Positions 6,118 through 10,778 of a stretch of DNA of 12,041 bases are shown here, piece by piece. The translations under genes were made by a program, and so were the position numbers. The DNA is taken from NCBI GenBank assembly GCA_031441465.1, contig JANOEP010000067.1:1-12041 (forward strand). Reading direction: 5' to 3'. Source of the stretch: a bacterium (lineage in GTDB: Bacteria > Krumholzibacteriota > Krumholzibacteriia > LZORAL124-64-63). Below the pieces are notes generated by a model, which was not told the DNA's origin, made no database searches, and saw only the letters and a list, made by a program, of their open reading frames with translations. The first letter of the stretch is position 1, and every line of letters starts with the position of its first letter.

Positions 6118-6699
6118 TCAATGGTCGTATTGGGTTTTCACCTCGCCCCAATTCAACTGCTCGGTCGGGACCGGATCACCCGGGATGGCCCTGAGGTTCA
6201 CGCCGATCTCGTCGATGTGGCACTGCTGGCCTCCGATCACGACGATGTCGCAGACGCTGACCAGGCCGTTGCCGTCGCCGTCGACCCAGTCGTCGACGTG
6301 CCGCAGCACGCCGTGGTTCGGCGACACCTCGACCCAGGTCTCGCAGGTGGGGTTCTGGCCGCTGGGATATTCCGGCTGGAACGGTTCGAAGATGCCGCAG
6401 GTGAGATGGTAGGTCGGACCGGTCCACACGATGTGGAACCAGACCCCGTTGAGCTGGATGTAGTCGCAGCGGTCGAGCTGTCCGTTGCCATCGTTGTCGA
6501 CGTAGTCGTCCTGATGATAGACCTGCCCGGAGTGCGGGTAGAACTCGTGCCAGATCGAGCAGGTCGGCGGGACGGGCGCACGCAGCGGCCCCATCAGTTC
6601 GAAGTTGTACTCCGTGGCGGGTTGGGCCACGGCGTGGCCCGCTCCCAGCAGCAGGGCCGCCGTGACGATCAGAATGAAGAAGCGTTGCCGATGAAGCAT
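6118..6699 (-). CDS. Secreted hypothetical protein (193 aa) with two ~50-aa repeats bearing DxDGNG loops and a C-terminal WGxxKxxY motif
   Basis: Strong SD (GAGGAGGGAG) before ATG 6699. Signal peptide MLHRQRFFILIVTAALLLGAGHAVA. Repeats PTC..W.E..P..G...H.DD.VD.DGNG....CD. Ends PVPTEQLNWGEVKTQYDH. Confidence 0.85.
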   Translation of the reverse strand: MLHRQRFFILIVTAALLLGAGHAVAQPATEYNFELMGPLRAPVPPTCSIWHEFYPHSGQVYHQDDYVDNDGNGQLDRCDYIQLNGVWFHIVWTGPTYHLTCGIFEPFQPEYPSGQNPTCETWVEVSPNHGVLRHVDDWVDGDGNGLVSVCDIVVIGGQQCHIDEIGVNLRAIPGDPVPTEQLNWGEVKTQYDH

Positions 6700-6851
6700 G
6701 GTCTCCCTCCTCAAGCGAAGCGGCAGGTCGGCTCCGACACGGAGCGCGACGTCAGCATCCCGGTCGGGAGAATTCCCATCGGAATACTGGGTGTTGATGC
6801 CGGTCCGATCCTACACCTGCGGGAGAGGCTGCCGAGCGGAGAGTTGTTATT

Positions 6852-8234
6852 TTAAGACAACTGGCGATGTAAAAAGAGACCAAAACTGTTGTTATCCAAT
6901 AAGCAACCGTTCCGAACCACTTGTTCACCCCGCCGCCACACGTCGATGACCCGCCCGCGCCAGTCGTCGCCCGTCCATAGAGAAGGGTCGGGGTGCCCGT
7001 CGACGGGTAGGCGTGTGCCGCGCGCCTCGGGATCGAACAGGACCAGGTCGGCGTCGTAGCCGGCGGCCACGCGCCCTTTGCGACCGGCCAGGCCGAGCCG
7101 ACCGGCGGGTGCCTCGCAGCAGACGCGCACCCAGCGCTCCGGGGTCAGCAGGCCGCGGCAGACGCCGAGGGTGTAGGAAACCAGCAGACGCTCGCCGACG
7201 CCGGCCGCGCCGTTGGGGACGGCGGCGAAGCCGTGGACGGATTCGCGGCGCTTGATCTCCAGGGGGAAGGCGCAATGGTCGGTGGCGAGCCAGGCGATGT
7301 CGCCGCCGGCGAGACCGTCCAGGAGGGCGGCGCCGTCGGCCGGCGCGCGCAGGGGAGGGGACATCAGCGCGGTCAGAGCGTCGTCGCCGCCGCGCGCGTA
7401 GAGCCCCTCGTCGCGGAACAGGTACTGCGGGCAGGTCTCCGCGCGCAGGTTCACGCCCACGGCGCGCGCGCCGCGGATGAGTTCCAGGCCGGCGGCGGTC
7501 GACAGGTGCACCACGGTCAGCGGGCAGCCGGTCTCCTCGGCCAGCAGCATGGCCTGGCGGATCGCCTCGACCTCGGATTCCGGCCCGTGGGCCGCCGGGT
7601 GCCACTCGGGACCCGTGCGGCCGGTCGCCGCGAGGATGGCCTCGGCGGCGGCGTTCATCTCGCCGTCCTCGGCGTGCAGCAGCAGGTGGCCGCCGACGTC
7701 CTTGACCTGGCGCATGAGCAGGCGCAGCTCGTGGAGCGCAAGCATCAGGCGGCCCTTGTAGGCGAGGAAGGCCTTGAAGGTCGGCACGCCGTTGCGCACC
7801 AGGCCGTCCAACTCGGACAGCCGGTCGGGGCCGATGTCGCAGACCGTCGCGTGCAGGCCCCAGTCGCAGAGGCAGGCGCCGTCGGCCGCCGCCTGCCAGC
7901 GCAGGACGGCGTCGGCGATCGGCTCGCCGCGCGCCGGGTTGGCGAAGTCGATGACCGTGGTCGTGCCGCCGAGCAGGGCGGCGGCGCTGCTCTCGCGCCA
8001 GCCGCGGCTGGACAGTCCGTCGCGCAGGGGCATGCCGAAGTGGACGTGCGGGTCGACGCCGCCCGGCAGCAGCCACAGGCCGGCGGCGTCGATGTCGCCC
8101 TCCGCGATGGTCGAGTGCCCGCGGCGCTCGTGGAGGTCGACGATCCGCCCGTCGCGCACGTGCACGTCGGCGGCGAGCGGCCCGTTGCCGGTCATCACCG
8201 TGGCGTTGCGCAGGTGGAATTCGGGTGTGGTCAT
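6852..8234 (-). CDS. hydA: Dihydropyrimidinase / D-hydantoinase (cyclic amidohydrolase family), 460 aa
   Basis: PGGVDPHVH (metal-binding HxH), [18 protein letters not shown] (carboxylated Lys position), [48 protein letters not shown]. The real start is MTTPEF at 8234; the upstream part of the 1048-aa track ORF is antisense to mccB. Confidence 0.88.
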
Positions 8235-8240
8235 GGGGCA

Positions 8241-8269
8241 ACAGTAGGCGGCGGCGGATCGGTCCACAA
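8241..8269 (-). promoter_or_regulatory. sigma70-like promoter for hydA (TTGTGG-17-TACTGT), leaderless geometry
   Basis: -35 at 8269-8264, a 17-nt spacer, -10 at 8246-8241, then 6 nt to ATG 8234. No SD sequence. Confidence 0.55.
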
Positions 8270-8288
8270 GTGCGCCCTCCGACGGGGG

Positions 8289-8317: not shown

Positions 8318-8384
8318 GGCCGCCGGCGGCTGCCGCACACGTCTGCCGCGAACGTCCCGAGACCCAGTTCCCGCCGGGAGGGCC

Positions 8385-9992
8385 ATGAAACGGATCGTCT
8401 CGAAGATCGACAAGCACGACCAGACGTTCACCGAGAACGACCGGCGCAACCGGGCCCTGGCCGCGGAACTCGCGACGCTGCTCGGGCGGATCGGCGAGGG
8501 CGGGCCGGAGGCGGCGCGCGAGCGCCATACCGGGCAGGGCAAGCTGCTGGTCCGCGAGCGGATCGAACGCCTGCTCGATCCCGGCGCGCCGTTCCTGGAG
8601 CTCTCGCCGCTGGCGGCCCACGGCGTCTACGGGGACGAGGTGCCGGCCGCGGGCCTGGTGACCGGGATCGGCACGGTCCACGGCCGGCCGGTGATGGTCG
8701 TGGCGAACGACGCGACGGTCAAGGGAGGCACCTACTACCCGCTCACGGTCAAGAAGCACCTGCGCGCCCAGGAGATCGCCCTGGAGAACCGCCTGCCCTG
8801 CGTCTACCTGGTGGACTCGGGCGGCGCGTTCCTGCCGCTGCAAGCCGAGGTTTTCCCCGACCGCGACCATTTCGGGCGGATCTTCTACAACCAGGCCCGC
8901 ATGTCGGCGCTGGGCATCCCGCAGATCGCGGCGGTGCTGGGCAGCTGCACCGCGGGCGGCGCCTACGTGCCGGCGATGAGCGACGAGGTGGTGATCGTGC
9001 GCGAGCAGGGCACGATCTTCCTGGGCGGCCCGCCGCTGGTCAAGGCGGCGACCGGCGAGGAGGTCACCGCCGAGGAACTCGGCGGCGGCGACGTGCACAC
9101 GCGCATCTCGGGCGTCGCGGACCACCTCGCGCAGGACGACGCGCATGCCCTGCGCCTGGTGCGCGACATCGTGGAGAACCTGGGGCCGGTCGAGACGGCC
9201 GCGGTGCCGACCTCCCCGGCCGAACCGCCGCACGAGGACCCGGCGGAGCTGTACGGCGTCGCCTCGGCCGACCCGCGCCAGGCCTTCGACGCACGCGAGG
9301 TGATCGCCCGCCTGGTCGACGGCAGCCGCCTGCACGAGTTCAAGCCGCGCTACGGCGCGACGCTCGTCTGCGGCTTCGCGCGCCTCCACGGCTACACGGT
9401 GGGCATCCTCGCCAACAACGGCATCCTGTTCAGCGAGTCGGCCCTGAAGGGCACCCACTTCATCGAGCTGTGCAACGCGCGGCGCGTGCCGCTGATCTTC
9501 CTGCAGAACATCACCGGCTTCATGGTGGGCAAGGCGTACGAGCACGGCGGCATCGCCAAGGACGGGGCCAAGCTCGTCAACGCGGTCAGCAACAGCACCG
9601 TGCCGAAGTTCACCGTGATCATCGGCGGCAGCTACGGCGCCGGCAACTACGGCATGTGCGGCCGGGCCTTCCAGCCGCGCCTGCTGCTGATGTGGCCGCA
9701 GGCCAAGATCTCGGTGATGGGCGGGGAGCAGGCGGCCGGCGTGCTGCTGCAGGTCAAGCAGGACCAGCTGGCGCGCCAGGGCCAGGCGCTCGACGCCGCC
9801 GGCGAGGCGGCCATCGTCGAGCCGATCCGCGCCAAGTACGAGACCGAGGGCCACGCCTACTACAGCAGCGCGCGCCTGTGGGACGACGGCGTGATCGATC
9901 CCCTGCAGACGCGCGACGCCCTGGCCCTGGGCATCGCCATGAGCCTGTGCGCCCCGATCCCGCCGGCGACCTACGGCGTCTTCCGGATGTAG
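8385..9992 (+). CDS. mccB: 3-methylcrotonyl-CoA carboxylase beta (carboxyltransferase) subunit, 535 aa (LiuB/MccB)
   Basis: [117 protein letters not shown]-terminal YGVFRM. SD GGGAGG upstream of ATG 8385. Confidence 0.96.
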
Positions 9993-10006
9993 GGGCACCG
10001 ACGAAA

Positions 10007-10038
10007 GAACCCCCGCCTCCCGAGGGGGGCGGGGGTTC
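10007..10038. terminator. Intrinsic terminator hairpin between convergent mccB and secreted-protein genes (possibly bidirectional)
   Basis: GAACCCCCGCCTCC-CGAG-GGGGGCGGGGGTTC forms a 14-bp stem with one G-U pair on the plus-strand RNA. The minus strand continues with TTTCGT. Confidence 0.8.
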
Positions 10039-10067
10039 GCAGGTCGGGCGACCGGAGTCGCGAAGCT

Positions 10068-10778
10068 CTAGCGGTAGGTGGCCTTGATGCTGCTCCAGTT
10101 CGCGTCCTCGTTCGCCACCGCGCAGTCGATCTGCAGCGTCAGCGTGATGACCGAGCCCCAGGTGCCGAACTGCTGGCCGGCGGACGCCGCGGCGCAGGAG
10201 CCGTCCAGGAACGTCGGGTAGGTGGCGGGCTTGACGATCGCCGGGTTCAGGCTGGTGGTCTCGCCCGCGCCGACGCCGTTGCCGATGGCGAAGACCAGCG
10301 CGCAGCCGTTGGCGAAGGTGCCGACCGTGTTGCCGTTGACGACCGCAGCCACCGGGGTGCTGACGCCGCTGATCATGATGTACTGGACGGTCGTGATGAC
10401 GGTCATCGCGCCCAGCGTCCCGGAACCGTCGCCCCACGGGAAGCCGCCGGCGAAGAAGGTGAAGGTGCCGCCGCTGTAGGTCGAAGTGTAGACGATCGTG
10501 CCCACGCCGCTGATGCGGTTGTCCTGGACGCTCATGCTCGAGGACGTGGGGCAGCTGATGTCCCACTGCGTGCCCAGGGCGGCGCCGTTCCACGACTGGG
10601 CGTGCATGACGTGCGGGAAGCCGGAGTTGATGCCCGACCGCCAGGTCGAGGCGCGGCCGGTCAGGAGCTGCCCACCGAGATCGGTGGAGGTGTACATCCC
10701 CGCGACGGGATCGGCCAGCGCGATCACGGGAATCGAAACGAGCGTGAGCAGAAGCAGGACCGATAACGTAGCTTTCAT
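10068..10778 (-). CDS. Secreted hypothetical beta-rich protein (236 aa) with C-terminal WSSIKATYR motif
   Basis: SD GAGAGGTG before ATG 10778. Signal peptide MKATLSVLLLLTLVSIPVIALA. G/S/T-rich body with four Cys and host-like codon usage. Ends AVANEDANWSSIKATYR. Confidence 0.87.
   Translation of the reverse strand: MKATLSVLLLLTLVSIPVIALADPVAGMYTSTDLGGQLLTGRASTWRSGINSGFPHVMHAQSWNGAALGTQWDISCPTSSSMSVQDNRISGVGTIVYTSTYSGGTFTFFAGGFPWGDGSGTLGAMTVITTVQYIMISGVSTPVAAVVNGNTVGTFANGCALVFAIGNGVGAGETTSLNPAIVKPATYPTFLDGSCAAASAGQQFGTWGSVITLTLQIDCAVANEDANWSSIKATYR

Follow-up and report, generated by a model that had tools for sequence, protein, structure and literature searches.

Two unrelated secreted proteins encoded in a 12,041-nucleotide stretch of DNA from a bacterium of the Krumholzibacteriota (GenBank assembly GCA_031441465.1, contig JANOEP010000067.1; hereafter the window) end in the same short tail, which recurs on many other exported proteins with a 17-residue consensus of [TV]-[PA]-x-E-x-x-[ST]-W-G-x-[IV]-K-x-x-Y-R-stop and which very probably is a sorting or docking signal. 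The tail is real and apparently undescribed so far: the full-text literature searched holds no description of it, most subscription papers and supplements, the latter of which could bear on the point, lying outside that coverage. As to how it might work, the full mechanism that we favor has the portable tail send proteins to the cell surface, there to be recognized and removed by a dedicated PorU-like sortase that anchors the cargo; this we regard as evenly poised between right and wrong.

The window forms contig C67 of a genome (G000) of 3.49 Mb with 69.6% GC and a completeness of 96.8%. The first tail copy (6121..6174, minus strand), defined by its open reading frame (ORF) and a position-specific scoring matrix (PSSM), has two extra residues past the Tyr and closes a 193-residue exported protein of no known family (ORF at 6118..6699, minus strand), with a predicted Sec signal peptide (6625..6699, minus strand) and, by sequence reading, two Asp-rich EF-hand-like loops. 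The second copy (10071..10121, minus strand), defined by the PSSM and by AlphaFold2 as an extended linker followed by a predicted 8-residue helix from the Trp, closes a 236-residue exported protein (10068..10778, minus strand), also with a predicted Sec signal peptide (10713..10778, minus strand). The signal peptides were called heuristically, with approximate boundaries. AlphaFold2 predicts the 236-residue protein as a small all-β barrel (mean pLDDT 93.5), and its homologs show a family ending either in the tail or in PEP-CTERM. Both tails lie exactly where the first-pass annotation of the window had placed them, with a stop codon directly after each, and the two proteins are, as it had held, otherwise dissimilar: since their top BLASTP alignment covers just the tail (6/15 identities, E 0.054), they are not full-length homologs. 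Neither they nor two tailed homologs gave a Pfam or NCBIfam match below E 0.1, and a search of the ESM Atlas yielded no usable match. The 193-residue protein has two homologs, both of which keep the tail; longer fused forms were absent from 493 candidates, which is a weak test. For the body of the 236-residue protein Foldseek found no match, and the best fold, at Z 8.5, is not decisive.

How widespread is the tail, and is it truly terminal? A loose regular expression run over all six frames of the genome gave 68 matches, 62 of them 8-11 residues ahead of a stop. Applied to 6,856 terminal and 141,764 internal Trp/Phe windows, an iterated PSSM gave 68 of the terminal ones a score above 25 and none of the internal ones a score above 20. 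In GTDB genomes, a DNA pattern that permits TGG in place of the stop codon gave at least 129 distinct matches in at least 128 loci, with a true stop in 129 of the 129 listed. A chance motif and full-length homology are thus ruled out by the terminal-only PSSM and regular-expression matches and by BLASTP. The Asn before the Trp in the earlier consensus proved not to be typical; Ser or Thr is. Signal peptides were called for 57 of the 68 tailed proteins, as against 596 of 2,637 other genes (p 9e-26), by a crude heuristic rather than SignalP and with start sites called without regard to signal peptides; when starts are chosen to favor a signal peptide, a biased choice, 67 of the 68 look exported. 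The tailed proteins measure 92-381 residues and, with the tail removed, fall into 51 unrelated body clusters. A Pfam match was obtained for 11 of the 65 scanned (LTD, CHRD, cohesin, CBM20, DUF642, TSP3 and others), and there is β-helix cargo as well. The proposal of a portable tag, strictly C-terminal and enriched on signal-peptide proteins with unrelated bodies, is borne out by these numbers. Rarity, non-terminal copies, lack of signal-peptide enrichment and full-length homology had been named beforehand as the outcomes that would speak against the motif, and on all four the result came out in its favor.

With a 20-column profile, each of the 121 genomes examined from the window's phylum proved to have tails (3-74 per genome among the matches listed), as did 39 of 41 genomes of the Eisenbacteria, where each of the two misses has a weaker true tail, and 10 of 10 and 21 of 21 genomes of two further phyla. 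In the Zixiibacteriota, our control phylum, a tail occurs in 1 of 41 genomes, namely the seed, at a contig edge; controls from this phylum still encode SprA (12/12) and many PorV-family proteins (3/3). The loci found with the strict DNA pattern, at least 128 in number, are mostly from Eisenbacteria, Krumholzibacteriota or Latescibacterota, or unclassified.

The anatomy of the tail would suit a protein reader. In 211 of 269 homologous proteins, chosen solely for a Trp placed 8-12 residues short of the C-terminus, the Lys at W+4 and the Tyr/Phe at W+7 are conserved to 98% each, the Gly/Ser at W+1 to 97% and the Val/Thr at W-7, the lead-in residue with a fixed seven-residue spacing to the Trp, to 88%. 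For two unrelated cargo families, AlphaFold2 predicts a β body, an extended linker and a terminal helix of 7-8 residues starting at the Trp. As the first-pass annotation had it, there is no hydrophobic membrane segment: the mean hydrophobicity over the last 10 columns is about -0.05, and the tail has neither a transmembrane segment nor a basic cluster. That annotation had further described the tail as an amphipathic-helix tag, of which the short terminal helix stands as a prediction, while amphipathy is doubtful as the deciding property, Leu at W+6 reaching 53% as against 98% for Lys and Tyr/Phe. Direct binding of membrane lipid or lipopolysaccharide by a basic amphipathic helix, with no protein reader, would suit the predicted helix and a hydrophobic moment that peaks at 100-110 degrees. 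However, W+6 accepts Arg, Thr and Ala while the Lys is nearly invariant, the lead-in spacing is fixed, the length is only about nine residues, and the linkage to a peptidase gene described below would be left unexplained, so that we consider this reading highly improbable; the conservation, we infer, fits protein recognition better than plain lipid binding. A Lys-specific isopeptide chemistry is likewise disfavored, because several tails of one genome have Arg at the Lys position.

Substantiating a sorting function is the finding that, by sequence comparison, the tail takes the place of a PEP-CTERM or a type IX secretion system (T9SS) C-terminal domain, position for position; this exchange was not part of the first-pass account. 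The 236-residue protein has 285 close homologs, and the strict tail pattern is present in 113 of the best 120. A profile search of the family gave 224 matches, of which the 149 newly listed comprise 110 with the tail, nine with a PEP-CTERM-like end and 30 with other ends, mainly fragments or frameshifts. TIGR02595 exceeds its cut-off in eight of the nine PEP-CTERM-like homologs, and there the PEP-CTERM starts right past the last β-strand, at the same position as the tail. The second exchange lies within the window's genome, where a tailed 271-residue protein (G000:C64:54637-55452) matches, along its entire body, three proteins that have FlgD-Ig at their ends, with identities of 67%, 56% and 40%; one of the three exceeds the TIGR04183 cut-off. 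With the PEP-CTERM/exosortase system (TIGR02595, PF09721) the tail thus shares the site on one protein family, small β-rich cargo, a Val/Thr-Pro lead-in and a basic end, but it lacks the transmembrane segment and the Arg cluster. Exosortase was found in 31 of 61 genomes of the window's phylum, all tail-positive, but none was detected in the window's own genome or in any of the 21 genomes searched from its family, which rules out exosortase processing of the tail for that family. Measured against the eight attributes that Haft lists for tripartite C-terminal signals such as PEP-CTERM, LPXTG and GlyGly-CTERM, (bioRxiv 10.1101/2023.06.07.544157), the tail shows attributes 1, 2, 6, 7 and 8, has 3 and 5 in part, and lacks 4. 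The parts examined of three other papers (bioRxiv 10.1101/483123, PMC12365241, PMC3909097) do not describe such a tail.

Could the tail then be a minimal type A T9SS signal for the ordinary PorV and PorU, retaining only the cleavage region and the final residues? A minimal T9SS-related signal beside FlgD-Ig tags had been envisaged from the outset, and the coexistence is indeed there: the window's genome has 114 FlgD_ig matches, SprA above cut-off, a PorU-like protein beside PorV (402.7 against a cut-off of 420), eight PorV-family proteins above cut-off and eight C25 peptidases, and SprA scores above cut-off in 42 of 42 genomes, with a PorV orthologue in 46 of 46. Like type A C-terminal domains (TIGR04183/PF18962, and the PF13860 form), tails follow an N-terminal signal peptide, sit on unrelated cargo in genomes with SprA, PorV and PorU-family genes, are interchangeable with such domains directly on one body, and have similar last three residues, an ending of the form [LMI]-hydrophobic-[RK]-stop being found in 87 of 100 FlgD-Ig proteins and 35 of 68 tails as against 37 of 2,583 other genes. 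That a very short end can matter is suggested by Hbp35, whose last 22 residues alone are described as absolutely required for secretion and attachment of green fluorescent protein (cited in the available part of PMC11969387). Nevertheless, we judge this reading improbable. The tail has about 17 residues with a predicted helix, not a β-sandwich of 70-80 residues, has no hidden Markov model match, and lacks motifs B and D; controls with SprA, PorV and PorU are tail-free, as are the canonical PorU/PorV loci (0/9). The first-pass annotation had pointed out, for the S8 peptidase of the window (gene 893-4906), that the lead-in resembles the linker ahead of the FlgD-Ig domain; this resemblance turned out to be weak, 1, 9 and 17 of 300 shuffles equaling the observed score with three profiles; the part compared there (893..1207, minus strand) comprises the linker and a FlgD-Ig/T9SS type A-like C-terminal domain (PF13860, E 5.9e-9), whose TIGR04183 score of 21.8 bits lies slightly below the cut-off of 23. 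Even the short T9SS C-terminal domains of Prevotella intermedia have 43-55 residues, with three β-strands and motifs B, D and E, and were modeled on PorV (PMC11969387, in part); they resemble the tail as reduced signals that occur beside long ones and have a Pro/Thr-rich cleavage region, whereas the tail is one third as long and misses these three motifs and the three-strand sheet.

In the window's genome, an operon at G000:C10:147324-162320 encodes PorU, PorV, an M6-like protease, two uncharacterized small barrels, an NHL lipoprotein and a 1158-residue barrel that matches SprA weakly. Most of the genome's PorV-family genes come directly 3' of a gene for a large protein whose C-terminal domain is of a variant type, and TonB-dependent receptors or ExbBD/TonB accompany some of them (G000:C54:18113-24954, C47:170-8812, C72:36600-45163, C49:35357-50444, C9:97194-108403 and C27:66337-76925). 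This arrangement suggests dedicated shuttle-cargo pairs. Type B signals are reported to have cognate shuttles (PMC12618676). No clear candidate for a tail-specific PorV paralogue emerged when 94 PorV-family sequences of 10 genomes were placed in a tree, and no recurring machinery gene was found within 1.5 kb of tail genes. Also encoded in the window's genome are a small barrel two genes off a tail cluster (C32:17797-18714), with a weak PorG match (E 0.0045), and two porins with weak PopA-family matches (C13:35541-36743 and C54:10498-11706).

The candidate reader of the tail, absent like the PEP-CTERM exchange from the first-pass account, is a C25 PorU-like paralogue sited among tail genes (G000:C37:10297-14496; PF01364, E 1.5e-44), which in a C25 tree groups apart from the PorV-adjacent PorU. 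Like the PorU sortase, for which a His-Cys dyad and Arg722 are described in the part of PMC4560394 consulted, it combines a C25 domain and a His-Cys dyad, His933 and Cys974 being intact in 30 of 30 sequences, with a C-terminal sorting domain of its own. An Arg about 32 residues past the catalytic Cys was not seen in the paralogue, nor was it seen in the canonical PorU copies of these phyla. Because conserved columns identify its C-terminus as a FlgD-like domain, we predict the paralogue to reside at the surface. It is present in 29 of 32 tail genomes and in 0 of 12 controls, and of 26 held-out tail genomes, 21 score 458 bits or higher with a paralogue profile, 30 of 30 controls staying at 267 or below among the matches listed. 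Tail genes lie near the paralogue in 17 of 29 loci (42 tail genes in 535 kb, in regions up to 20 kb; kin loci are included, so that the counts are not independent), the chance level being that a random 20-kb segment of the window's genome contains a tail 24.7% of the time. All linked tail genes are upstream of the paralogue, on the same strand and within 4.6 kb, as examined directly at 13 loci and taken from coordinates at the other four. Within flanks of 1.5 kb only 1 of 29 loci has a tail, and 10-kb flanks are needed to see the linkage. Around SprA, 20 loci contain no real tail, two regular-expression matches having been judged false by eye. By phylum, the linkage holds for 12 of 14 loci in the window's phylum and for 3 of 4 and 1 of 1 in the two small phyla.

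The linked operon has a composition of its own. Immediately 5' of the paralogue, between one and five genes encode tailed proteins some 190 residues long; one such member, modeled with a pLDDT of 87.5, has cohesins as its top Foldseek matches (E 6.7e-4, probability 1.0, TM 0.4-0.5, identity 7-15%); seven members of this cohesin-fold family gave no Pfam match. The operon also encodes a tail-less Ig and dockerin-like protein with homologs in 11 loci, in which PF00404 exceeds its cut-off in 1 of 10 and is weaker in two. The gene at this position in the window's genome (C37:7781-8401), a putative counterpart, has no Pfam match. The operon, for example L393:476-18462, often lies between mltG and murQ/anmK/spoIID/nagZ-like peptidoglycan-recycling genes, anmK being assigned by sequence reading. 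We imagine that its tailed cohesin-fold proteins may provide surface docking sites for dockerin-like partners. The cellulosome offers a comparison, in that one cohesin-fold module, tagged at its C-terminus, occurs near sortase-like and dockerin-like genes; unlike there, the hosts are diderm, the enzyme belongs to the C25 family, no multi-cohesin scaffoldin was seen, and cohesin-dockerin binding is here a supposition. The cellulosomal ScaE is reportedly sortase-anchored.

Such an operon raises the question of whether the tail is cut at all. As a non-covalent docking peptide, akin to a miniature dockerin, a retained tail could plug its helix into a surface scaffold, either the paralogue or another operon protein. 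The three fixed recognition residues with their variable lead-in would suit this arrangement, as would the company of a tailed cohesin-fold and an Ig/dockerin-like protein, but it does not account for the catalytic His-Cys pair being kept in every paralogue sequence, and both signals that the tail replaces undergo cleavage, according to the available parts of PMC4560394 and bioRxiv 10.1101/2023.06.07.544157. We therefore think it unlikely, though not to be dismissed.

In the sortase mechanism that we favor, cargo would first be exported by Sec via its N-terminal signal peptide, a predicted step for which the enrichment is observed. It would then cross the outer membrane, most likely through SprA/PorV, which are encoded in all tail genomes tested. 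Co-occurrence and gene order suggest that the helix at the end of the tail would next be recognized, through its Trp, Lys and Tyr, by the PorU paralogue or its partner. Finally, by analogy to PorU, the tail would be cut in its [TV]-[PA]-x lead-in and the cargo transferred by transpeptidation to a surface glycolipid. An extended version, in which four uncultured phyla operate a parallel Gram-negative sortase pathway with a 17-residue helical peptide, SprA, a dedicated C25 transpeptidase and a covalent coat with cohesin docking sites, and with no recognizable Gld motor, is put forward tentatively, as we would sooner expect it to fail than to hold in full.

Several observations weigh against the sortase mechanism. 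Only one phylum served as control, and the tail-bearing phyla, four in number, may form one clade, so the co-occurrence is effectively one contrast. Of the Gld motor, a search for GldM alone, with no positive control, came up empty in all 26 genomes covered from the window's phylum; this would set the tail further apart from type A signals, and no energy source for export is then apparent beside the SprA, PorV and PorU-like genes present. The tail is also without the β-sheet that PorV binds in all T9SS signals described in the part of PMC11969387 available. As for the paralogue, the support uniting all its copies in the C25 tree is a low 0.56, rising to 0.99 when one small phylum is left out, and it scores 150.7 of 420 with NF033707 and 48.7 of 450 with NF052324, the NCBIfam PorU2. 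While it resembles PorU2 in being a second PorU-like protein, it is not PorU2, because the latter score lies below the canonical PorU's own. Among the held-out tail genomes, four have C-terminal fragments only, and one that is tail-rich (G124) has no paralogue. Since 36 of 47 linked tail genes fall into one cluster, the linkage may reflect a partnership with one family and not with the tail as such, and in Eisenbacteria it is seen at just 1 of 10 loci.

This near-absence, the bordering peptidoglycan-recycling genes and the lack of a detected Gld motor would be compatible with sorting by another route, such as a periplasmic chaperone, a protease or a different exporter, to which the paralogue linkage would be incidental. 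Uniformly small cargo points the same way (a median of 226 residues, as against 810 for 46 pattern-picked FlgD-Ig proteins, both signals together occurring in none). However, the linkage recurs in three phyla out of four, each of which contributes divergent members, and the exchanged ends are surface-sorting signals, which makes another route quite improbable. The tail lies outside all the families compared here and, on current evidence, works most like a T9SS/PorU signal.

Several other genes lie in the window. Its start is occupied by an IS1-like transposase with a zinc-binding N-terminus (2-841, minus strand; NF033558, E 3.4e-5), truncated by the contig end and with a relative at G000:C64:35001-35879. 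The S8 peptidase (893-4906, minus strand) has 1337 residues, with CARDB, Ig-like and FlgD-Ig domains and a long, unannotated N-terminal region. An exported rhodanese-domain protein follows (5095-6054, plus strand), with several Cys toward its C-terminus and a weak match to selenoprotein TsoB. Sequence reading points to a dihydropyrimidinase-like amidohydrolase, a carboxyltransferase β subunit, an enoyl-CoA hydratase and a biotin carboxylase at 6852-8234 (minus), 8385-9992 (plus) and 11020-12041 (plus), and the 236-residue tailed gene interrupts this apparent leucine-catabolism cluster in the opposite orientation.

What would such a signal mean for these bacteria? If the interpretation is true, the tail represents a new class of bacterial sorting signal that has no membrane anchor and no folded domain, and the candidate enzyme named here makes the pathway testable in vitro; a transpeptidase acting on so short a tag could also serve protein ligation. 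One protein family that ends in either PEP-CTERM or the tail, and another for which one genome has both tailed members and members with a T9SS domain, would connect three sorting systems. Up to about 2% of the genes in these uncultured bacteria, mostly hypothetical now, would thereby become probable surface proteins.

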